A stretch of 60,693 bases of DNA, the filler included, from Basidiobolus ranarum (lineage: Eukaryota): assembly GCA_040143965.1 (NCBI GenBank). It is 6 parts of 6 records of this genome, joined end to end, with 100 filler letters (N's around TTAATTAATTAA, not from the genome) between each part and the next. Parts side by side here need not be neighbours in the genome. Positions count along the whole stretch, not along the records: positions 40,563 to 50,580 come from JASJQH010007628.1; 5 more parts are not named here. The stretch is one strand, 5' to 3'. Under the pieces are notes generated by a model, which was not told where the DNA came from, did not search any database, and was given only the letters and a program-made list of their open reading frames with translations. Position 1 is the stretch's first letter, and every line of letters begins with the position of its first letter. Both the position numbers and the translations under genes were made by a program. Positions 191 through 60,350 of this stretch are shown piece after piece.

Positions 191-1614
191 TGAACACGAA
201 ATGATCTCAAATTTAAATATATTTTTGACGAGGAAATATTGAGCAATAGCTATGATATATACAGTTGGATGGTCAAGTTATTGCAATAAGTATATCCACA
301 ACCATTAAGCTTTTATGTTGCTACATGAAGGGAAAGCTAACATGCTAAAAATAAGCAGATACATAAGTTGGATCAACAGCCCCGATACAAATGATCAAAT
401 ATAACCCTAACCCTTGAGACATCAACCTCAAGGTTCATGGTATTTTAGGGTATATACTTCTATATATTCCTCCATTGTTAGCGATTATATCACTAACAAG
501 TACTTTGACATATTTTAGGGTACATTTAACATGCAAATGATTGGCGCTTCACTAATTTTTATGAAGAGACAGTTCGATTATTTGCTTATTGCCTCTCGAC
601 CTTATGGCGCATGCGTCGTCAATTCATTATTTCTAACCAGACTGCAACACCAGAATGAATACCCCATTTTCATATGATGTAGCTCTGAAGAGAAAAAAGG
701 TTAAAAGATAATAGAGCTGGTGTATTGGATTAGCGTGAAATATTGTTCCAGAATCAGTTCTTCCATCGGACTTTGAATCACTGTTTGTTATTCAGTTTTT
801 TAGAGTTGGCATGACTCCAGTGACTGTTGTATAAAGAAATCTGAGTTGATCATATATAACCTAAAGAGCTGTATCCAGAAATGCAGCAATGTTCAAGGGC
901 AATTGAATGGAGATTGCTTGGTTGACATGGGCGATGTTTTGGCAATCCCGTGGAAAGACAGCTGGGGCATATCGCTTACGGTTAAATAGGTTGAACGTCA
1001 CTTCTCCCCATGAATCACCTAAAACAGAATATAAGCAACAGACACAAAAGCATGCTCAGTATGTCCGCATGAGAGCCTAGTCATGTGGAGGAAAGTGACA
1101 CACCTCTGGGTGAAGTCAGTCCATCCCATTTCCCATCATACAGTGATCTAACCCCATCAGAATCCATCACTAGTTTACTGTGACATCCAACCGAAATATT
1201 CGATATGGATGTTGGATTGACGTTTTCCATTTCATTCCCAGATCTTTAATGGGATTAACGTTGCAGATTTTCGTTCCCTAATGCTAAATGGAGATATCAT
1301 CCGTCACATAATTCCGCCCATCTTTCCAAATTTAGGGAAGCGAAGGATCTTGAGTCGTTGAGTGGATCCAGATCCTGACTGGAAGTGTTTACATAATGAA
1401 GTAGCTGGTATCATAATTATACAATCATTTCCATTTTAAAGAAAATCATCAATCCATCGCCTCTTATAAAGTTCCGTCCCCACTAGATAGTCCATAAATA
1501 TTTTGTTGTCTGAATTCACTTCTCTGACCCTTTTTAATCGTGATTTACTGCCGCCTTTGCCCTCTGCGTAGCTTTTAACCTTCGTTTAGATCCTACATTA
1601 ATTTCGTAATAGAC

Positions 1615-10047: not shown

Positions 10048-10147
10048 NNNNNNNNNNNNNNNNNNNNNNNNNNNNNNNNNNNNNNNNNNNNTTAATTAAT
10101 TAANNNNNNNNNNNNNNNNNNNNNNNNNNNNNNNNNNNNNNNNNNNN
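10048..10147. other. Artificial 100-nt contig spacer (N-run/TTAATTAATTAA/N-run)
   Basis: The same spacer recurs five times. The core has stops in all six frames. Confidence 0.98.
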
Positions 10148-14978: not shown

Positions 14979-17900
14979 AGATATCAATGTTGTTTATTTT
15001 GTCAGTAATTCCAGTCATATATTTGATTGGAGGGAGCTAATGGAACTGAGGCATCGATATTGTGACTACTTACACATTAGATTCATGCCTCAGTTGATGT
15101 CCTCTCTCCTGAACTGTTCTTGCCTGTTTAAAGCTCTTAAATAATCTCCATTTCTGAAACTCGTGACCACAATCTTAATTTAAATAGATTTAGTTTAAAT
15201 ATGGATATCCCAGATTATCAGAGGTATACATAGTAGTATGAAGAGCAATGCTCTGCAAGCTTCATGGCTTCTTAATCTCTTGATATTTCCATCATGTACT
15301 ACCTGATACCCATAAATAATGGGTGACCAGTTGGTTACCATATCATCTGGCCATGACTTCTTAATGTAACTGGAATGATTGAGCTATCCCCCATTCATTA
15401 ATTTGCCAAGAGGTATACTTGACGGTTTGGTATTCATAAAGAACCATTGATATTCATGAAGTCATACCGCTGAGGTATATAAAGACAAAGGGCCGAAAAA
15501 AAACGGAATGGTAAAACTGATGCATAACTATATGTATGTCTACATTGGCTCAGTTGAGTTATGACTAAATGGTGCGCGTTTATAGTTAATCATTTCTACA
15601 TATACTGTAGGCTGAACGAAATTTCGAAATGCTGGCTATCACTTGGAGATGACGAGATTACAAGAATATGGTAGTGTGGTAACTTAGTGATAGCAAGTTG
15701 AAAGAGATCTTTCGAAATATGTAATTAGTTCATCTATAGAATAGTCAAAGAGAGTAACCCAGTACATTATCTAAATTGTGCCCATAACGGAGGGCAACCG
15801 GAGAAAGCATAATCCATTCACACGTTTCGAGTTAGCATGACATAAAAACACTAGTAAAGCCCATAGTGGGTCTATCAATCCAATATCTGCAACATGATCA
15901 GCCAAGCATATCAGACTGCGGTTCGTTGGAACAAATATTGATTAAGGTTTTAGTATATCATCGGTAACTAATGGCCTCTACGGTTATCACATTCGAGACC
16001 TCCCTTTTATAGGAAATTGGTAGACTGAGAATAAGTGAAATAACGAGCTTGATTGAGGAATTGAGAATTGCTGAAGTCCATTTCTGGTAATTCAAGATGG
16101 TTCGCCTGATTGATGATTATTTTATCATGGGAATCGACGGATATGAGGCGTTGTTTTGTAGCTCCGTATTTCTTCCACAATCAGCTTTTATGGGGACACT
16201 AGTAAATCAAAATTGTACTGACCGTTTAGGATGATGGTATTCTTACTCCATATAGCAGCTTACATAGCTACGGTACGGTACCTCTGCCTCAACCAATGAA
16301 CCAGTAGGCCGGTGCCATAGAGCCTTACTAAGTCATTCGTAACTCCTGGACCGGTGGTCTAAGAATAAAATCCAAGTCCATATATATATCTACGTACCTC
16401 TGGGCCATAAATGTGGATTACTCAGCTTGCCGTCAAATCTCGTGCAGCAATTTCCGCAGAAGGATTTCGATAGAATACTCGCGCAATGTTGACGCTACTG
16501 CGCAGCAAAATAATTATCGAATTTCTGTTGATTGTCTTTTTAGGAAATCAGGGGGAGTTCTATCTACAAAGCCAATTTTAGGCAAGCTTAGCGCACTATG
16601 TGTTTGGTAAGAAAGCATCGGTTGCTACTGTCAACACTCAAAGTATGAGTATAGCTAGCCCCCAATCAGGTTTCTTGATTCACACCTTTGATCTGATCTG
16701 AGCGTTGAACAGAATCTGTTGCAAGTCTACACTCGGGCTATACATGATGCCAACGATCCGTTGCATGCACAAGGGAAACAGGGTTGCTTTGTTCGCTGTC
16801 CTCTGGGTAGTATGTGTGCATTGACAACGATGTGCAACGCAAATGAAGACACTTATTTGAATATAGGTAAACTTTGAATAATGCATATGCTAACATGTGC
16901 ATATGGGCTTTGCTTATTGACGGATCGACTCATCGCGAGAAACCTCTAAGCTAAATACACTACAATAGAATCCATGTTTCAACATGGGTGATTTGAATAA
17001 TGCATACTTCGAAGTTGCAGCCAACAGCTACTGGATGGTTGGAGCTGTGGACTGTATTTAAGCTTCTGTTTTCTTTGCCTTTAATTAAATGAGCATTGAG
17101 ATTCTGAAGGGTTCTCAAGAGAAAGCTTTCGAAACTTATCCATTGGAGATTAGTACATAGCGTATCATTGACCAATCAAATACATCACCAGCGCTTCTAA
17201 TCACGCTAAACTAATCATGATTAGTTCCATATAAAGTAGACCACCGACAACACATAACAGGTTCCAAGCAAAGGCATCCAGTAGGCTAGTCAGATCGTGT
17301 AAAATCCAGCTGTCTCTTTTTAGCTAGTTTATTTGGGTGGTCTACTCTAGGCCATATGAATTGGCGGGGCTCTGGCTCAAGTAATAGGTGCAGGTTTTGA
17401 GTAGGGTGGGGAGGTGATTAAGACACAACTTTTTTGTATACACTGGTTTATTGTTTCTGATACCCATTTGGGTTTACTGACCATGCTGAGATCATGACTG
17501 TGTCGATTATATAAGGAGCAGAATGGTTTCTTCTGTCGATTATCAAGCATATATTACTTTCTAAATCAGGCCAGACCCGACTGGTGCTGACATATGATTT
17601 CGGTTAAAACAAGCAGGGGAAATGAAAATCCTCCTCTGAAACAAAGATTAGAGGGTTAAACGTTTCGGCTTGTGTTATGATACGAAAGAACAAGAGACTC
17701 GAGTATCTTGTTTTGAGCAACGTAACTCGAAACATAGTTGATATCGTTGACTAGATATATCCTAGAGAAACCTGGACTTGTCGCACCAAGTCTTGGGGGC
17801 CTATGGATATGTTTGACTTGAGCATCTTTAAATGAAACATGTAGATTCATCGAAGACAAACATGTGACCTCGGTACAGATCATTTTATCTGTCAGGCGAT

Positions 17901-20191
17901 TTATCTGCATTCGAGGGACAGCAACACTGTGCATAGTGACATTCCTTACGAAAAAGTCAGCTTGAATATTCGCACACTGCCACTTTTATGGACTAACTGA
18001 GGATTTTCTACGATCCAAAGTTAAAGAGGCCTCTAATCGATTCCTTACATCTCTCAGTATTCTGTGCACTATACCGGCTTGGGGAAGATATGATGTGCCT
18101 CACTTGCCAATCATACAACGCGAGGTTCTAATATTTGCTCTAAACCCAAATAATGCCTAAAATGTTTTTGCGAATGCTTTTTGACAGACATAGGTATCTG
18201 TCTCACCTTCAAAGCATGCTTAATGGATATAAGTCACCCAGGAAACTGAGATTGAGACTTAATAGATGCTAAATCCATACTCAGGGCTAGGTGTGGGTGA
18301 TGCTCTCAGTAAAGTCTCAATAATATACTGATCGTTTAGGGAGAGTTTAATCCATCTTCAAATGGGCTTCTAGTCCTTCCAAACCCATACTGATCAGTAG
18401 CCATATACGCTATATGTCCTATACATGACTTGCATTGTATCCACCTTGCTTCCGCTACATGGCTAATCTCAAATTCGATATTTATCACTAACTGCGACTA
18501 ACGACTATCTCTAAAAGCGATGCTCCTGGCGAAGCAGCTCGAACACGGATCCAATTGAAATCCCTGAATCTCTGATAAGCATGGTGTAGTTTCAGCATCA
18601 CTCCCACCCCTCTCTATCAATGGGAAACACTTGCCTGGGAATAGCTTATTTTGGACCCAGCACCATACCCAACCAAGCTGCTTGATTTGCCAAAAAATGC
18701 GGAATGTTACAAGTAGGAATGTAGAATATATCGATCGAATCAAAGATATACATGTCATTCTCAATAAATCTCGCTCAATTGTGTTCCTTGTAGTGCTTAT
18801 AATGGCTATCTGAAGTGGAGCCAGATTGCCGACTGTGTTCACCCAATTTATCCGTTCAATTGGTGGACAATCGCAAGTACAAGTTCATCAGGCATGCGCT
18901 GCTGCATTGGCTATCCTACTTTTCTCAAGATCAAATTCAATGAAGGCGTTGTTATAAGCGAGCCTAAAACATCCATGGGGCAGGAATGAAAATGGCTAAA
19001 TTGAAAGCGCAACAAAGAAACAGACCTTGTTATTGTAGCTTCCGTCGTATAGTTTCATGCATGATATTCATTGTGATTCTTTCTCTGAGAACAGGTTTTA
19101 CCTCACTGTCTTGATTGTATTGCAAGCTATTATAGAATCCCATGATCTCATCCACATTCCAATTTTTAGTCATTGAGATGCCTGTTTAGGACATTGGTGC
19201 CAATTTATCTCTTTGTTGAAAGTTTCTCATGTTCCGTCCTTCGAAACTGGTTGAACGTAGGCTTGGTCAGTAAATCATCTCTCTGTTAAGCTTCTCTTGA
19301 TAGTGATCATCTACAATGCTTGGGGAGGGAGCTCTGAGATTCGCCATATTCCATCGGACAAGCTTAGCACCAACGAACGACAAAATCGTGCTCAACCCGA
19401 GCCATCTGGATTACCTGCAGATCCGCCAAGAATGGCGCAGGAGAGTCTGAGAGCCCGCAAGGCCTCCCCAAATCAATGCAAAGACCAGAGGTGGAGGTGA
19501 AGACCTCTTGAATGGAGTCGTTTCCGGGTGGTTGCTAGTCCTAGTAAGCAGTTCAAGTGACCACTAGTGCAGGATCACATCTACACCACAAACAATACAT
19601 GTATGATTTGGACCCAGATCCGGTATATCAAGAGATAGAACATTTACACTTGAGCTACCATACAAATATATGCTGATGGGTTTCATTCGGCTGGTGTCAA
19701 TAACCGGCCAGAAGAAGCACAGAGAGCTTATGTTATGTTCTGGATTCTCATTCAATTTTTTCCTTTTTCTGCACCATCTCCCTACTTCGATTTTTCAGCA
19801 TCGTACGGAATTGTATCATTATCAGCCAACAAACAATTCTCATCATCCTTTTCCCTCATAATTCCCATTTTGTGCCGTTCCACATCTGCTAGAAAATCAC
19901 AATTACATTATTGATGGATCTGAATATCATGATATGTGTTGCCCGATCAGTAGATGACTAGGGAGCCTTAGAATGATGCCTTATTTTGATCCCAATAGGT
20001 GGTGGATCTCGCTGCAATAGTCATTTATATTGACACACTTCTTTATCACCGCAACTGGAAGCCTCATACTTACCAACAAGAACCCGTAGCTTATTTTGAT
20101 TATTCGGTTTCCCCACTTCTCTCCCCACTATAAAATCTCCAACCGCTCCATATTTTTTTTTCGCCACCATCTGCAATCACGAGTACGCCTA

Positions 20192-20291
20192 NNNNNNNNN
20201 NNNNNNNNNNNNNNNNNNNNNNNNNNNNNNNNNNNTTAATTAATTAANNNNNNNNNNNNNNNNNNNNNNNNNNNNNNNNNNNNNNNNNNNN
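20192..20291. other. Artificial 100-nt contig spacer
   Basis: N-run/TTAATTAATTAA/N-run. Confidence 0.98.
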
Positions 20292-26874: not shown

Positions 26875-28172
26875 TCACGTGAAGTGTCGCGTAAGAGTTT
26901 CCTAATATGCGCAAGTAGCAATAAAGAAAGAGAGTATGATTTGGTTAGTTATATGCTTCACCAAGATGATATATCCGATTTCTACTTACATGTGTGAAAA
27001 AGATGATCGCACTGGTGGGTGCACTCTTAGCTACGGTGATACCGCAACCGCGATAAAACCCGCGGATCCCTTCTGCAGCGTAGAGCTCTTTAGCGATCTG
27101 AATGATCCCCCGTTTAAACTGACTCGTATATTGAGATTGACCGACTACTTCAGTTTGCATTTGAGATTTAATAACATCAGCCGGGAAAAGAATAAAATTA
27201 TAGGACATCCCAGCAACTGCTCCTGCTAACATGAGATGACCGGCTCCAAGATTACTCTTTGTGATTATCTCTCCGGATTTGAGGTTCTTACTTTCTCTTG
27301 CTATGAGCCACCGGCATATTGCTTCGTAAACTCCGAACCATGCTGCTCCACCACCGACCTCACGGAAAAGTGTAGGTAAATTTCCACGATAAAATCCGGT
27401 TATCCCCTCATGTTTTAAAGTGTGGGAAATGACGGAGAATGGGCCAGTGAAATGGGTTACTTGACTGCCTCTCAAAACGGAATTCTGATACTTGCGAGCC
27501 TCTTGAACTTGTAGTTTGCATTTAATAAGTTCTATAGGGGTCAATACAAAAGTTGCAGCAATTCCAGAAAATCCTCCAGCGAGGCACAACTCCGAAAGGG
27601 ACAACTCTGGAAGAGCTCCCTTATCCTCCAGATCATGTTCACCACGTAAGAATTTCCGAATCAATTTCTGTCCTTGAGCGTAGCCAACAAACAAAGCCGA
27701 ATTCTCAAGCATGGCTCCTACTAAAGGCGAAGAAAGACCCTTGGGGGAGGTTAAACGGGTTAGAATCTACTTTGTTAGCAATGAACTGAACGAAAACATA
27801 CTCGATATAAGCCATGAAAACCTTCATGGTGAACAGTTTTTCTTAAACAGTCCCATGGACCTTCGAACATTCTTTGACCTGCAGGTTGAGACTGCAGACG
27901 GACTTTCACAGTATCAAGAGGGTACTCGATCAGTTTTCCCAACATTCCAGCGAACTGGCAGTTTAAAAGAAAATTTTTTAGACGACTTATGTCCCAAAAC
28001 AAGTAGGTTTCGTCCAACATGGACAATTCCCAGTTAACGTAATGAAACTAACCGAGCCGAAAAGTAGATCCGCAACAGTTGAACCTTTCTCGAAAAGCTT
28101 TAAGCCGCTCTCCTTCGACAAATCGAACCCTGTGCTGTTCACCTCAGTGGTTGGAGTCTGAATGTAGTCCAT
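26875..28172 (-). CDS. Mitochondrial carrier (SLC25), ornithine/basic amino-acid carrier ORT1/SLC25A15-like
   Basis: Three carrier repeats ([33 protein letters not shown]), [10 protein letters not shown] and [14 protein letters not shown]. Final mini-exon ETLTRHFT* ends at 26875. Confidence 0.9.
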
Positions 28173-30332: not shown

Positions 30333-30432
30333 NNNNNNNNNNNNNNNNNNNNNNNNNNNNNNNNNNNNNNNNNNNNTTAATTAATTAANNNNNNNNNNNN
30401 NNNNNNNNNNNNNNNNNNNNNNNNNNNNNNNN
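30333..30432. other. Artificial 100-nt contig spacer
   Basis: N-run/TTAATTAATTAA/N-run. Confidence 0.98.
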
Positions 30433-40462: not shown

Positions 40463-40562
40463 NNNNNNNNNNNNNNNNNNNNNNNNNNNNNNNNNNNNNN
40501 NNNNNNTTAATTAATTAANNNNNNNNNNNNNNNNNNNNNNNNNNNNNNNNNNNNNNNNNNNN
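40463..40562. other. Artificial 100-nt contig spacer
   Basis: N-run/TTAATTAATTAA/N-run. Confidence 0.98.
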
Positions 40563-42236: not shown

Positions 42237-44207
42237 CTGCAATTACTATTTATCAAACTCAACACCATTCTCCAGTAGCATTCAGCATAACTAGGCACCA
42301 TCACTCATAACTAATAGAAGAAAAGGAGCCGAAGGTTTGGTATGTTGTCACATGGCACAAGTCCATGGAAAAGTTGTTTCTAATAGGTGCATTAGCAATC
42401 TTACGATTACCAGTATATACAATGAGATATAGATCTGCCACCTTGGTTTTACATGAGTTCGTATTTGTTGTTTATCCGCAGAGAATATTCACGATCTCAA
42501 AACCTCTCATGCTAATCATGTACTATCTGCGTTCGCTAGCCAACCTCAACCGCTTGAAGTTGAATGTGATGGATTATAAGCACAACATTACTTTATTTCT
42601 GATTCTCGCGTGTAAATCCAAAACTCGCCATCGAAAGTATATAAATATATGTAAGAATTTAGAACTACAAGCCAGATCTAAACCCTTCAAGGACAACCTG
42701 TATTAGAGGAAAAGGAAACTTTGGGTTTAGCTACTATTGAAAGAGAGATACTTGTCAGTTTGAGCATAGAAGGTCCACCAATGATGCCTTCTCGTGACGA
42801 TAAGATACAGCTATCTTAGGTATGTTCATTGCATATATATGAGCTCCTCTTTTACTTACATCTGTGTAGACTCAAGTTTGCCACTGATTCAGTAGAGAGA
42901 ATTTCTTCAGTTAGTATTACTTTGATGCCTACCTATATGACACCTTGTCGGACTTGGTGACCCTGCTCGAGGTGTTGGAGGATCTACACTTTTAATAGCT
43001 ATACCCTGCAATTGCTGCTCCTGAGTCTCAAGGTCGTTCGCCAATGAGCTTAAGATCAGTTCCACTAGGTGACCTCTGACTGGTATACTAGGACGTCCTC
43101 CTAGCTTTCGAGACTTGTCCCTGAGTAAATACCTCGAAACAAGAGCCCTCTGGGTCTCCTCAGTCTCCAGGTCGTATTCAGTAAAAATTAGACTAAAAAA
43201 CGATATTTCTGTTGATGCGGGGACTAAACTGGCACGTATTAACATGTCTCCAGTTCAAGACATGGAATATGTTTCATATGTACTATTCTTACTTCAAATC
43301 AATGCATATTCAGGTTCACAACAATCTTACCAACCGAAGTGACTGCTTCTGATCTTATCAATAAACGAGAGAATCTTAATTATATCCATCTGATTTTCGC
43401 CCATTCTGCTAATCTAGTACGTTCGTTGCCTCCAGCTACCAAACCCAAGCTTTATCGTCATTCAGAGCTGAGTTACTGGAACCTGCTCAAGTCCCAAAAA
43501 ATGGTTAGTGATACCATGTCACAAATGGATATCCATTGCTTAACTCTGCGTACTTTTTTCCAATTGGCCAATTCAATGCTCGGAGTCCATCTTCTCGTAG
43601 CTTATTTTGTAAAGAGTGTGGGGTTATTTCCGGATCGAATCAACTACATTATATTTTTGTGATCGAAGTTATATTCAGTGTCAATGTAATAACCACTTCG
43701 TGACGTGAAAACACAGTGAAACGTTGTTAGCCCAATATTGGAGATTAGTGTAATTGGGGGATAATGGCACTCAAACTCTGATATGCTTAACCTGATAATT
43801 CCGATGTATGGATTATTTATTAATGTGAGAATACTATAATGATGTAAGTGATTGATAGTCCTTAGTTCCATATTCGACCAATGATATCGAGAGAAAAGGC
43901 AAAACAATTGATTTCCGATCTATCATTTGTTTATATGCATATAAGCGGTTCTTTGAAGTGAGCAGTTTCATCTTTGCCAATAATTCCTTCTCACGGCCAT
44001 ATTCCTTTACATCTTTCATCTAGAGTTTCCTCCATCTTAAGCTTCTTTTAGAGGTGTTTACTGTCCTTGATTTGATTGTCTTACACACATCGCCTCCAGG
44101 ACTATCTACAACACTACAATACTCATCTCTTTAACCTCACTCCGCCTTTAGCTATAAACTTCACCTCTTCACTTAGGCCAACCCAATTTCTGGCTTGATA
44201 GTACGGG

Positions 44208-44985
44208 ATGACTTATCTCCGCAGAAAATTAGTTATTGTTGGGGATGGGGCATGCGGTAAAACATGTCTTCTTATGGTATATGCGAAGAACGAATTTCCT
44301 GCGGTATTTTTAAATTGTGTTTTTACTACCCATTCCAGGCTTACGCTAATGTCCTCATCTCACTTTAGACATACGCCCCTACTGTTTTTGAAAACTACGT
44401 TGCTCGTGTCCAAGTTAGTCGTAAAGTCATAGACTTATCCTTGTGGGATACAGCAGGACAAGAAGAATATGATCGTCTTCGTCCTCTTTCTTACCCAGAA
44501 ACTCATGTTGTTCTCTTGGCATTCGGCATTGATAATCCTATTTCTTTGAGCAATATTGCTGAAAGGGTACGTTTATACATGTACAAATATTATTCCATAC
44601 TAGAGTAATTAATTAGATTTTCTCAATTCAAGTGGCACCCCGAAATTGAGCATTTTTTGAAAAATGTTCCATTCTTTCTAATCGGTTGTAAACAAGATCT
44701 TCGTCAGGACTCTTCTACTATTGCTAGTCTCACTAGACGAGGAATGGCCCCTGTCACATATCAAGAGGTGACTTATTTTAACCATATGACAATTGAGTTT
44801 GTGCCGATACTAATTATTTCTACTATTGACAGGGTGAAACTATGGCACGTCAAATCCAAGCACGGCGTTACCTGGAATGTTCCGCTAAGCTTGGTATCGG
44901 AGTCGAGGAAGTATTTGAGGCCGCTGCGCGAGCCGCCATTAGCCTCGGCACTAAAAAGGTTATGCGAAGTTGCGTCGTCTTATAG
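44208..44985 (+). CDS. Rho-family small GTPase; 4 exons
   Basis: [64 protein letters not shown] and C-terminal [14 protein letters not shown]. Confidence 0.95.
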
Positions 44986-45516
44986 TCATGGATGCAGATC
45001 ACCTATGTCATCGTGTGACTTCGTTTTATAGAGCAAAACTTGCCACTAATACGTCGGTTATATCCTACTCATCACGATATATATATTGTCTATACATCGC
45101 CTCGGAGTTGGTGACGATATATCATTGTTCATTCGATTATCTCAAATTTTGTTTATAATAAAGCTCTATTCTGTTACGATATATATATATATACTTTGGT
45201 GAATATTGCGATTACGAATGTAAACCAACCTTAGAATTTAATCAAGTTCTAACCACGCATAATCGAATGGAATATCCTTATATACTTGATTCATCATCGA
45301 TCGCTCCAGATTAGATCAGCTTGGAATTTTTTAAACCAATTCCGGGATGAGAAATCCAAACCAGTCAGGTCATAAAAAGGAATACTTATTTTGAGAGATT
45401 CTTCATATTCTGAACCTACTCGGGACCCAGAGTCAAATGAATAGGAATAAATCTTTTGGTGGTCCGTAGGAAGAGTCCTTCTTTCCCAACATACAAACGT
45501 GGTAACTAGTTTGAAA

Positions 45517-46297
45517 ATGGTGAGTTTCTCATTACAATATTTTAAGCAATTTCGTCGGGTTGTAAGTGATGTGTATGGATGTGTCAACACCAGGAAGGAA
45601 TGACATGGAGTATGTATGCTCGCAAGTTCCTAAACTAACTTGTGAATCTGTCATCCATCGAGTTGCTTTCACGCATCCATCGTATTCATTCAATCAAAAC
45701 ACATCGCCCGTTGAAAATTCCACCAAATTATTAGCATCATCATTTCTGACTATGTTATCTCATTAGGCTGCCGAAGCTTCCCCTTCTACCAACACCATGC
45801 GTGAGTTGCGTATTGAGAAACTTGTTCTTAACATTTGTGTCGGTGAATCTGGTGATAGACTTACCAGAGCTGCCAAGGTTTTGGAACAATTGACTGGTCA
45901 AACCCCCGTATACTCCAAGGCTCGTTATACTGTTCGTTCCTTCAGCATTCGTCGTAACGAAAAGATTGCTGTTCACACTACTGTCCGTGGTCCTAAGGCC
46001 GAAGAGATCTTGGAACGTGGTCTCAAGGTTAAGGAATACGAATTGAAGAAGTCTAACTTCTCTAGCACCGGTAACTTCGGTTTCGGTATTCAGGAACATA
46101 TCGATTTAGGTATCAAGTATGATCCTTCTATCGGTATTTACGGTATGAACTTCTTTGTTGTCTTGGGTCGCCCTGGATTCCGTGTCTCCCGTAGAAAGAG
46201 ATGTCAATCCAAGGTTGGTTTCTCTCACCGTGTTACTAAGGAGGAGACCCAAAAGTGGTTCAAGCAAAAGTATGATGGTATCCTCTTGAACAAATAA
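45517..46297 (+). CDS. RPL11: 60S ribosomal protein L11 (uL5); exon 1 is the ATG alone (45517-45519), intron 45520-45766
   Basis: [49 protein letters not shown]...[17 protein letters not shown], with strongly biased codons. AAAATG|GTGAGT donor, CTGAC branch and CATTAG acceptor give [15 protein letters not shown]. Confidence 0.97.
45548..45719 (+). promoter_or_regulatory. Predicted long nested stem-loop in RPL11 intron
   Basis: Several ordered complementary segment pairs found by eye (detailed in findings). Confidence 0.6.
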
Positions 46298-50580: not shown

Positions 50581-50680
50581 NNNNNNNNNNNNNNNNNNNN
50601 NNNNNNNNNNNNNNNNNNNNNNNNTTAATTAATTAANNNNNNNNNNNNNNNNNNNNNNNNNNNNNNNNNNNNNNNNNNNN
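50581..50680. other. Artificial 100-nt contig spacer
   Basis: N-run/TTAATTAATTAA/N-run. Confidence 0.98.
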
Positions 50681-50849: not shown

Positions 50850-51243
50850 ATTACTCTTCTCATTTTCATATCTTAATGCCAATGCAAATGTATATTTATC
50901 ATTGATTCCCCGGAATATATCATAAAATAAACAATATTACTTAAATTTTCGGTCTTGTCGAAGTACGTATGAATTTATCGTGATTCAGCCACTTGTCTTC
51001 GTTTGGTCTCGAACATACGAATACAACTAGCTTTGGAATGGGTGTAATCGTTGTGACACCGGTCACAGATGCTATCTATCATGACTAAAACATCGGATCA
51101 CAGTAATCCTTCATCTCATCTGTATTGCGCCACAATGATGGTCAAATTGGAATGAATTTATTCTTGTTAGTTTATGTACAGAACGATAGAGATGAACGTG
51201 ATGATTGGGAAATATATGAATGGGGTTAACTACTAATGGGCAG

Positions 51244-52396
51244 TCACCATTTTAGCAATCTTTCACCTTCCCATGTAATAACACCCCCCTTGACTTCATG
51301 ATCCCATACACCTGGTTGATAATCCAGTGAGTATTCTAGATCATCATTTGTCAAGGAATCCCAGTATTTGTAGATCATCATCACGGAAAACAAAGTGGCT
51401 AATATTGTGAAGAACAAACTATCGGTGTAATGGGATAACAATTCACATACATCCGGACCAAAGTAATTGAACAATACTTGTCCAGCAATAAATGAGACGG
51501 TAGAAAGAAATATCACACCTAAAGAGAAGCGATATGTTAGTAAACCTTCTACCATTAACAACCTATAGAATCTTACAAACCTAACGGCCAACGATCCGAC
51601 AAAGTCTTTAGGATTAGGAGGACTTGTAGCAGAACGTATAAAGCTAATGCCGCCCCATTTAGCACGTAATATATCACCCAAAGTAGCACTGGACGTTCTG
51701 AGCTCAACCATGGAGTCCAATCTTTAAATGTTCCAATAGAAAATAGAAGAACGATCAAACTAATGAGGCATGTGGAGGCTCTGATAGACCATAAAGATAA
51801 TGCGGTTCCATCTTCAGCGAATTGAAAGCCCACGAATCCGGTCAATAGGAGGCACCATATGGTACCAGAGATCAATCCAAGTTGTACCCCTACAAACCAC
51901 TAAGAAGGGAGATTAGTGACTGGTGAAGATAACCTAAAAGAACAAGACGTACTGGATATGCTGAGGTTGTCACGGATATGAACCCGCTGGTTAACAAGAA
52001 TTCAACGAAGACTGTGATAAGGTAGACATAGAAAAAGCAAAGCATCTCTTCTCGTCCTGTAAGACTAATGTCAATATCAGATACAAGTAGTCTATTGTGA
52101 GCCAAATGCTTACCAACTGCGGTGTACTTGGTGCGTGTACAATAAATGATGAATCCAGTGATGATCATAACTAGAATGTAGACAGCTAGAGTGCCTATAT
52201 AGCGTAATTTTAGTGGCACATCAGGGAAAAGACCAACTCTGGTTTGAAGATTACCTGGGTTGAATATCAAATACCCACCAACATCCAAATTGCGAGCTAT
52301 ACAAGTGGAATATGCCCTTTCTTGAATAGGTCCAACCAAAGGACACAATGGTAGTGACATAGTTTGACACACATGATTAAACTGTCCAAGTAGCAT
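51244..52396 (-). CDS. CHS7: Chitin synthase export chaperone, multi-exon
   Basis: GQFNHVCQTMSLPLCPLVG, CIARN, RTKYTAVGREEMLCFFYVY, WCLLLTGFVGFQFAEDGTALSLW, TLSDRWPLG, FFTILATLFSVMMIYKYWDSLTNDDLEYS. Confidence 0.93.
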
Positions 52397-54156: not shown

Positions 54157-54718
54157 TTAAGACTCCATGTTGGTATCTTCTTCCTCAGAAGAAGAATCGT
54201 CACCTTGTGCCTGTGCTTGAGCGGAGGCTGGTATATTGCGACGAGTAGCTTTAGCGTCACGTAGTCTTTGGACAGTAGTATGATTTCCGTGAATACATTC
54301 GGTGTATAGATCACATACTTGTTTTCCAATCTATCAAAAATAGGGTCAATAAAGACAAGCTAGTCTGTAAATAAAGATATGCTACGTACCTGATATGCGC
54401 TATCATCTTCCAAAGTTGTATTAAATTCGTCGTTCATGATTTGAAACAAAATCTCTTCTATATCTTCAGCATATACATTACGTCCGTCTAGATAGTTGAA
54501 TAGAAAATGGATTGAGTAAATTTGTCTTTGGATGTTGGGCAAAAATCAGGGATATTACTTTGACCAAAATAGTCCACAATAGTGCTCACCAACCACTCTT
54601 GTTTAGCAACTGAATCGACACCACCCCATTCCATCTCTACTGCGAGTTTCAATGCAGTCCAATTTTCGAATAACAGGGTAACACCTTCAGTGAAGGCAAC
54701 TTGGTTTGGGTGAGGCAT
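54157..54718 (-). CDS. TSR2: Pre-rRNA-processing protein TSR2 (WGG domain); 3 exons
   Basis: FTEGVTLLFENWTALKLAVEMEWGGVDS..KQEWL, EDIEEILFQIMNDEFNTTLEDDSAYQIG, acidic tail DDSSSEEEDTNMES*. Confidence 0.93.
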
Positions 54719-55584
54719 ATTCAAAGTTAAAGTGATGAATCGAGTATATGCTCAAGTTGAAGTGGGATCTTTCCAAAGATTGCTTAAGAGTCGAAGTCGA
54801 TCAAGATAGTAATAAAAAATTCCCTTTTTTCGGCCATGGTCAACCTTTTTTTTTACAATGAATCCCATCGGTCTCATATGATTGGATAAATCTCCCAGAT
54901 CCCATAATCCATCCATTTATTACATATACCGTGAATCTCTGGGTAGGATGTCCTTTGGGTTCGGGTGGTGATTTTGGATCGAGGTCGGCCAAGTCGTCGA
55001 GCTTGGTTCTTTCCTACCCTTTAAATCAATTTTTGGCTTCCCACTTTGTGGGAAATACATTTAAGAAAGTGAAGTGATTTCAATGGTGAAAATCGAGATG
55101 TTCGTGATGAAGTGACATTTCGATTTAATATATCAGTGTTCTATGATTGAACAATCCATTTAGATGAATTTCTACTTTTAGTTGCTTTTTAGAGTCACCA
55201 GTTACTCTACTTTACATGACGCGTCACTTACCCACATACCATACACTGAAGAGTGTAATCTATTCTCAAACATCGAGAGAAATACGCGCTTTTTTGGTCC
55301 AAGAAGGGTAGAGTGGTTATACCATTGTGACTTGGAACGCGCTACTTTGATTGGGAGTCTTTGGACTGTCACCGATCTAGCCCAAATAGGAAATCAGGGT
55401 TGGTCTAGTGCACTTGGTAATAGAATTAGCACGGAGTCATACTCCTACCCCTAACCCTATATCGGGGATGGTGGTGAATGATGAAGCGTAGTGGAGTTAC
55501 TCCTGTGTTTCACTTTGAATCCATATAAATAGGCTTGTGGGTAGTAGGAAATCGAATTTAGCTAACTATACCCTCTTCAATTTA

Positions 55585-58866: not shown

Positions 58867-59908
58867 TTCATATTATAATTGAACTAATGGTGAAATGGTT
58901 CTGAACCTGTAAAACAAATCATTTATAAGTGAATGGAGGGGCCGATTTAGAACTTTCGAATCTGGATCTGGAAGTGTCTACCCGAAGGTCTAGACGGGCG
59001 AGATCTTAGTCGTTCTCAGACGAATTCCTAGCCGAAATGCCAAAAGCGTGCTGGTGTAGTTAAAAATGTGACAATAGGCAACCGCTATTTGGGATGATAA
59101 TAGGCATCCACTGGGTAATTTATTTGGCGAAACAAATATAATGGCAACTCTATCTACCTAAGGGAATTTATGGCTCATTAGTAAGCTGAGCTAACTGAAT
59201 GCGCTTGCTTGAATGCGCTTGCTCTCTCCGACAAACTCTTGTGTATTCAACACCACCAGTATAAATTTTATATTTATCTAATAATATGCAATATATATAT
59301 CCAAATATTGCTGAGAGATGCCTGGAAAGCAAAATAAACATTCGAGTTCAATTCAGCTCACAAAGCGGGACTTGTACCTCTGACTCTACATACTATGTCT
59401 AGTGGTATTGTAAAATAACTTGCGGAGAGGGGCCTGTTAGCTCTGAAGTTAAAAAGTATCTGTTTATAGTCTGTATATGGATTATTCAGAAGTATATAGT
59501 TTTAGTACAAGAGATGCTTATATAATCAGGCGAAATTAAGTATTTATACATTTGATTATACATTTGAAAACAACAAGTTAAGCCTCATGCATCTACATCA
59601 ACAAAATCAGCCATTGTATGTGTACTCCTAAGCAATATATCAGTTCTTCAGGTTAGAGTATTGGTAGTTTCAAGATTTATAACGTGGTAGCTTATTATCT
59701 TTGTTAAATATCTTATTCCTATCTTTATGCACCCTGCTATTTCGTGTAGCACAATCAAGTTAGTCAACATTGGCTAGTTCACTATCCTTGAGCTGAAAGC
59801 TTGAATATATGCTTGGATTGAGAATAATAGGAAATATCTTGCGCAAATATAAGATAACTAAATACTGAGCTATATATGACTATATAGGTGTTTAGGCAAT
59901 GCTAATTT

Positions 59909-59924
59909 CAACAGTTATGAGCCC
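59909..59924 (+). mobile_element. Copia LTR 3' end / primer-binding site
   Basis: CAACA followed by GTTATGAGCCC, similar to the AACA-GGTTATGGGCCC junction of copia-type elements, immediately upstream of gag. Confidence 0.65.
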
Positions 59925-59943
59925 CAAGCTTGCACTCTCTGTA

Positions 59944-60350
59944 ATGTTTACTTCTCAAATTTATGGAACTTTTCCCTCTTCTGAAAAATTGGATAGAACC
60001 AATTATCAAGTTTGGAATATTAAAATGAAAATGCTGCTGCAAGAGAAAAGACTCTGGGACACTGTTGTAGGAGAAGAAAACAATGCAAAATGTATGAAAC
60101 CCAAGTTTTACTCCAGGTTAAAAAAGAACAAAGTGTCTTTAACACAATATGTCTTAATATTGAAGACAAGTTGCTAATTCAATGTTGAAGAGTTAAAGCT
60201 GCCAAGAAGGTATGGAAAGCCTTGAAAGTCACCTACCAAACATATTCTACTGCTAACAAGATGTTTCTAAGAAGACAATTGTTTAACTTAAAGATGAAGC
60301 CAGGAGAAGGTATTAAATGACTAATTAATAGAGTCACTTTTTTAGTGAAA
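59944..60350 (+). mobile_element. Degenerate Ty1/copia gag (DUF4219/UBN2-type)
   Basis: EKLDRTNYQVWNIKMKMLLQEKRLWDTV, then after a frameshift CLNIEDKLLIQC*RVKAAKKVWKALKVTYQTYSTANKMFLRRQLFNLKMKPGEGIK*LINRV. Stops and the frameshift indicate a dead element. Confidence 0.9.

Follow-up and report, generated by a model that had tools for sequence, protein, structure and literature searches.

A predicted rod-like fold in the long start-codon intron of a Basidiobolus RPL11 gene: a candidate looped-out, zipper-type hairpin

In a stretch of Basidiobolus DNA (60,693 nt, hereafter the window), the gene for ribosomal protein uL5 (RPL11) is interrupted directly after its start codon by a long intron in which a first-pass annotation had noted nested complementary arms. 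The locus raises the question of what such an intron would fold into, and whether the fold would serve splicing, regulate the gene, encode a separate RNA or do nothing at all.

The gene model is established (Table 1). A 247-nt intron after a lone ATG exon, as first annotated, agrees with the splice signals, the Pfam matches and the N-terminus of the ortholog. The product of exon 2 carries Pfam domains Ribosomal_L5 (PF00281) and Ribosomal_L5_C (PF00673), matches the uL5 chains of solved ribosomes in the PDB (E 3e-91), and has as its nearest proteins three Basidiobolus meristosporus CBS 931.73 paralogs, at 95% identity, and a partial B. ranarum entry, at 94%. When the ATG is joined to exon 2, the predicted N-terminus agrees with that of the annotated B. 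meristosporus ortholog (MAAEATPSTNP), which supports a first exon consisting of the start codon alone. Two YTRAY motifs occur in the intron, of which CTGAC is the sole one suitably spaced from the 3′ splice site. According to the predicted translation, retention of the intron would lead to a premature stop after 28 codons. Splicing from the cryptic donor at 45562 would insert 14 residues that are absent from annotated orthologs.

Table 1. Positions of the RPL11 gene parts, splice signals and predicted intron helices, counted along the window
Feature	Position	Strand	Remarks
Exon 1, start codon alone	45517-45519	+	ATG abuts GTGAGT
Phase-0 start-codon intron, 247 nt, U2-type	45520-45766	+	GTGAGT...CTGAC...TTAG
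Outer (zipper-type) stem, 5′ arm, predicted	45550-45560	+	pair probabilities 0.72-0.90, isolated intron
Cryptic GTAAGT donor, in frame with ATG	45562-45567	+	7-nt bulge between outer stem and core rod
Core rod, nested imperfect helices, predicted	45568-45705	+	GT-rich 5′ side versus CA-rich 3′ side
Apical hairpin, 9 bp and 8-nt loop, predicted	45620-45645	+	45620-45628 with 45637-45645; pair probability 0.998
Outer stem, 3′ arm, predicted	45706-45716	+	ends 29 nt upstream of CTGAC
Branch-point motif CTGAC	45746-45750	+	17 nt upstream of 3′ splice site
Exon 2, uL5/RPL11 coding sequence and stop	45767-46297	+	176 residues; TAA 46295-46297

Several smaller features accompany the gene. Additional splice-like motifs lie inside the intron, namely the cryptic GTAAGT of Table 1, GTATGT at 45610-45615 and CTAAC at 45635-45639, each placed by the predicted fold in a loop or bulge. 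Nested or tandem introns within the 247 nt were considered from these motifs together with CAG and TAG, and rejected; no combination had a well-placed branch point. The 13 nt that follow the GTG of the 5′ splice site (45523-45535) are 92% complementary, with 9 nt perfect, to 45810-45822 in exon 2 (RIEKL codons). Such pairing might span the splice sites or mask them, and by our own rough estimate one 13-nt match of this kind per 500 nt is about the level of chance. An in-frame open stretch of 66 codons (45566-45763) and a minus-strand open frame (45297-45629, no Pfam match) were both regarded as chance. Upstream, a Rho/Ras-type GTPase gene (44202-45031, +) ends ~485 nt before the RPL11 ATG.

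The pairings are likewise established as complementary sequence. All six arm pairs listed in the first-pass annotation are present at their coordinates and complementary when G-U pairs are allowed. In the minimum free energy (MFE) fold, four of them pair as originally described, whilst two are re-registered (to 45593-45601 with 45662-45670 and 45605-45609 with 45654-45658). At its MFE of -56.8 kcal/mol, the intron is predicted to form one unbranched rod, 45550-45716, with ~49 bp across 168 nt. Inside the outer stem, the predicted core begins with 45568-45584 paired with 45671-45680 and 45699-45705, and continues with the two re-registered helices; sampled pairs in the core have probabilities of 0.67-1.0 in the isolated intron. 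The apical hairpin has the 8-nt loop CCUAAACU and contains the CTAAC that resembles a branch point. With flanking sequence included (361 nt in all), the core rod was retained in both the MFE and the centroid folds, and the outer stem was lost, the region of exon 1 and the 5′ splice site now pairing with that of the branch point. The fold of this longer segment had a z of -1.42, and 8 of 100 shuffles were as good.

We compared the folding energy with that of dinucleotide shuffles, as the first-pass annotation had proposed. The intron does beat its shuffles, modestly: z was -2.15 for the whole intron (5/200 as good) and -2.03 when the splice signals were fixed during shuffling (7/300 as good). 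In a GC-regressed comparison within the stretch, a fold equal to or better than that of the whole intron was found in 359 of 2940 segments 247 nt long. For the rod taken by itself (45548-45719, 172 nt, sense strand), with borders set post hoc, the energy was -49.7 kcal/mol with a z of -3.56 and none of 200 shuffles as good, and its rank among grid windows was 12/2962, again with those post hoc borders. The antisense strand of the same segment gave -41.2 kcal/mol, a z of -1.72 and 8/200. Stronger folding of the sense strand is consistent with G-U pairs that are effective only in the transcript; this bias is established, and it is the one feature that favours RNA over DNA.

The rod was also placed among all local folds of the window with RNALfold (both strands, span up to 180 nt, ~121 kb of strand). 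By raw energy it came ~36th. Considering both strands, no other unbranched local fold was as stable, the lead being only 1 kcal/mol and the next four lying within 3 kcal/mol (-49.7 versus -48.7, -48.5, -47.9 and -46.9 kcal/mol). When the 33 most stable of the other border-optimised local folds were scored, 4 reached a z of -3.56 or below and 10 a z of -3.0 or below. The intron fold exceeds chance only slightly. Local folds with stronger z values (-3.8 to -4.8) lie at 377-548 (-), 27772-27944 (-, inside a mitochondrial-carrier gene), 17662-17839 (+) and 51199-51379 (-, inside a Chs7-like gene). The local fold with the lowest energy in the window lies at 19305-19485 on both strands (-69.7 kcal/mol on the minus and -57.2 kcal/mol on the plus strand; 53-55% GC), with a z of only -2.5 to -2.8.

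It had been suggested that folding would place the branch point near the 5′ splice site. The path between them is indeed shortened, to 53 steps in the fold versus 221 in the linear sequence, but there is nothing special in this: 298 of 300 shuffles shorten the path at least as much, with a median of 15 steps. Since shuffles give still shorter paths, we dropped the structural distance as a test statistic. The position of the outer stem can be compared with a published definition. Zipper stems have been described in long ribosomal-protein introns of Saccharomyces cerevisiae (accessible text of PMC12350175 and of Rogic et al. 2008, PMC2536676), and the definition, obtained by modelling within the A complex of yeast, takes linkers of 10 nt or more on the 5′ splice-site side and 20 nt or more on the branch-point side, summing to 42-85 nt, and a stem of at least 6 bp (Rangan et al. 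2025, PMC12350175, accessible text). When the intron is folded by itself, the outer stem of the MFE structure lies 30 nt beyond the 5′ splice site on one side and 29 nt short of CTGAC on the other, 59 nt in total, and has 10 bp at -10.6 kcal/mol; it falls within the zipper limits on position, linkers and base pairs, which were drawn from S. cerevisiae, not from this lineage. This geometry is established for the predicted fold. A qualifying stem was found in 42 of 250 shuffles and an equally stable one in 14 of 250. The core rod alone would leave linkers of 48 and 40 nt, and their sum of 88 nt is just beyond the yeast-derived 42-85 nt.

The likeness to the S. cerevisiae zipper stems, whose prototype is in RPS17B, thus covers the setting (a long, 5′-proximal intron of a ribosomal protein gene), the linkers of 30 and 29 nt and the suggested effect, a reduced effective distance separating the 5′ splice site from the branch point. 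The differences are that the host here is Zoopagomycota-like, of another phylum than S. cerevisiae; that zipper stems are short stems closing a large unstructured loop, whereas here the whole inserted segment forms a single predicted rod of 170 nt; and that stability over shuffles is marginal (those 14 of 250) for the predicted structure. To our knowledge, RPL11 of S. cerevisiae has no intron.

The position of the intron is much more widely shared than its length. Among 80 loci kept from 452 metagenome relatives, an ATG|GT intron before codon 2 of RPL11 was found both in short form (L044, 53 nt; L052, 56 nt; L054, 59 nt; L020, 75 nt; and L057, with donor and acceptor coordinates identical to those of L052) and in long form (L061, L062, L064 and L072, 302-326 nt; L016, 393 nt; L009, 401 nt), so that across these loci the start-codon intron spans lengths of 53 to ~400 nt. 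The position is common to many unrelated metagenome contigs and is ancient. The four loci with introns of 302-326 nt are on related contigs, and the 3′ ends of their introns are near-identical. No metagenome relative exceeds 84% protein identity, and accordingly none of the introns can be aligned with the one studied here. Folding of four further long start-codon introns of metagenome RPL11 loci (50 shuffles each) gave z values of -0.2, +2.55, -1.04 and -1.04. As none of the four showed excess structure at a z of -2 or below, structure is not a property of the class as a whole. Placement of an intron between the ATG and codon 2 has been treated by Nielsen and Wernersson (2006, PMC1626468, accessible text); that work concerns the position of introns, whereas structure is at issue here.

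Within the window, the earlier statement that this intron is several times longer than its neighbours is plausible but not proven, the census of introns being crude. It used motifs and open reading frames and is noisy: of 74 candidates, 15 are 44-70 nt long and lie mostly within Pfam-supported genes, and 59 are 82-593 nt long; 31 of the 74 are at least 247 nt, and the long ones are mostly weak in signal and unverifiable. Candidate short introns include 51900-51952 in the Chs7-like gene, four in an SNF2 gene and 54331-54389 in a TSR2-like gene. With relaxed exon chaining, the Chs7 and Rho/Ras genes received predicted models and a guanylate kinase gene none. Without its 172-nt rod, the RPL11 intron would measure 28 + 47 = 75 nt, which is similar to the short introns of the window (44-70 nt) and to the homologous introns of 53-75 nt in L044, L052, L054, L057 and L020.

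The explanation that we favour, tentatively and at slightly less than an even chance, is that the rod is a looped-out, zipper-type hairpin that holds the splice signals ~60 nt apart in an enlarged start-codon intron. An ancient phase-0 start-codon intron of RPL11/uL5 would have gained ~170 nt in a Basidiobolus-like lineage, and the extra sequence would fold on itself into the imperfect hairpin 45548-45719. During transcription the added segment would zip up and loop out, in a passive, structural role, and leave the splice signals at the spacing of the short introns that are usual for the splicing machinery of this genome. This would apply to the RPL11 intron the zipper stem principle of long budding-yeast ribosomal-protein introns. 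We infer from the model that the hairpin may form in the cell, where it might aid splicing or where the extra length might merely be tolerated. Of the roles put forward in the first-pass annotation, stems that enhance splicing fit the observations best, and the fold would be a new zipper-type case only if it is functional at all. If the hairpin forms and matters, compacting over-long introns by structure would be a fungal solution of old standing and general reach rather than a budding-yeast peculiarity, operating in a lineage with otherwise very short introns; the present evidence is compatible with a harmless, partly fortuitous fold. In the accessible main texts on Basidiobolus introns, which concern horizontal transfer and minor introns, we found no account of the structure of the RPL11 intron.

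That the pairing is fortuitous and without a role is unlikely, though a possibility to be taken seriously. The GT-rich and CA-rich halves of a ~220-nt unconstrained stretch would then yield a hairpin on paper that is unstable in the cell and leaves splicing unaffected. The whole-intron z of only about -2, the GC-adjusted rank, the 4 of 33 other local folds that score as strongly and the continuity of the energy of the rod with that of the next four unbranched folds are all in keeping with such an origin, as is the absence of excess structure from the other long start-codon introns, and there is a selection effect in that the site was picked because its arms were noticed. What chance would have to accommodate is that the top unbranched fold in ~121 kb of strand coincides with the one long ribosomal-protein intron, together with the sense-strand bias, the high pair probabilities in the core and a zipper stem geometry that just 42 of 250 shuffles attain. 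It is improbable, on a further reading, that the rod is what remains of a hairpin-forming insertion (a foldback element, a MITE or a local inverted duplication) within a ~75-nt ancestral intron, harmless and hence kept. This reading addresses origin and is compatible with a looped-out hairpin. The usual size of the intron once the rod is subtracted and the five other loci with 53-75 nt at the same position would suit it, and the rod is flanked by a weak 10-nt direct repeat (8/10 matches, starts 45539 and 45727), although by our rough estimate a flank match of 8/10 is within chance for AT-rich sequence. A multi-copy MITE had been named as an alternative to a functional fold; within the 60,693 nt the intron proved to be single copy by blastn, the best other match being 18 nt with an E of 0.03. 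The ends of the rod lack clean terminal inverted repeats and a target-site duplication of the kind expected for a MITE or foldback element, and its pairing is imperfect and runs along the entire length instead of being terminal. The mismatches are bulges of 7, 8 and 18 nt, not the point changes of a once-perfect palindrome, and neutral decay of a DNA palindrome would not give the sense-strand bias.

The two regulatory or coding roles raised at the outset, a uL5 feedback element and an intron-encoded RNA, are without support from the analyses run. By analogy, free uL5 or the 5S RNP might bind the rod and block splicing of its own pre-mRNA, with the retained intron leading to an early stop and decay. 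Budding yeast offers the precedent of intron-structure autoregulation in RPL7B, RPL18B, RPL28 and RPS22B (Granas/Stormo; PMC13232506, accessible text), and the present intron is likewise a structured ribosomal-protein intron in which an alternative fold might compete with the zipper fold. The stop after 28 codons upon retention would suit such a circuit, as would two possible off states, pairing of the 5′ splice site with the branch point and the match of the splice-site-adjacent 13 nt to exon 2. We nevertheless give a sensor of this kind very little credence. The autoregulated yeast introns differ in this respect from the one here, in which no mimicry of an rRNA binding site was detected: the intron does not detectably resemble 5S rRNA or another rRNA family in Rfam at E ≤ 10, subtle mimicry aside. 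The alternative fold, at a z of -1.42, is not significant. Titles and abstracts of the literature on RPL11 introns and splicing autoregulation contained no case of an RPL11 intron, and the accessible text of PMC13232506 names neither RPL11 nor uL5. Highly doubtful, too, is the more elaborate model of a conserved, Basidiobolus-specific regulatory RNA that toggles between the hairpin and pairing of the 5′ splice site (with the branch point or with exon 2), uL5 or the 5S RNP selecting between them; if true, it would be the first splicing-level uL5 feedback loop and the first outside budding yeasts, in early-diverging fungi. Least credible of all is an intron-encoded small RNA, either a snoRNA or the precursor of a hairpin cut by RNase III. 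Ribosomal-protein introns are frequent snoRNA hosts, and the rod has ~49 bp over 168 nt. However, the intron matches no Rfam family at E ≤ 10, 5S rRNA and all snoRNA models included. For a C/D snoRNA, there is no RUGAUGA; relaxing the C box yields UGAUGU at 45567 alone, and the sole CUGA is the branch point, 179 nt off, with no terminal stem by eye. The H/ACA layout is also absent, no ACA being seen by eye three nt from a hairpin end. Hairpins cleaved by Rnt1-type RNase III have an AGNN tetraloop closing the stem, and the 8-nt apical loop here is of another kind.

Elsewhere in the window, no Rfam family reached its gathering score, and the permissive Rfam search gave two weak matches, both upstream of the ATG. 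A tRNA scan and a tandem-repeat scan found nothing. N runs gave five pairs of 44 nt, ~10.1 kb apart, at 10048-10147, 20192-20291, 30333-30432, 40463-40562 and 50581-50680, which are the filler joins. The TSR2-like pre-rRNA processing gene (54491-54751, -) lies in another part of the joined stretch than RPL11. At the end of the window, an open frame at 59896-60174 (+) matches DUF4219 (E 4e-8), a domain typical of the Gag proteins of Copia-type retroelements, and this suggests a retroelement fragment.
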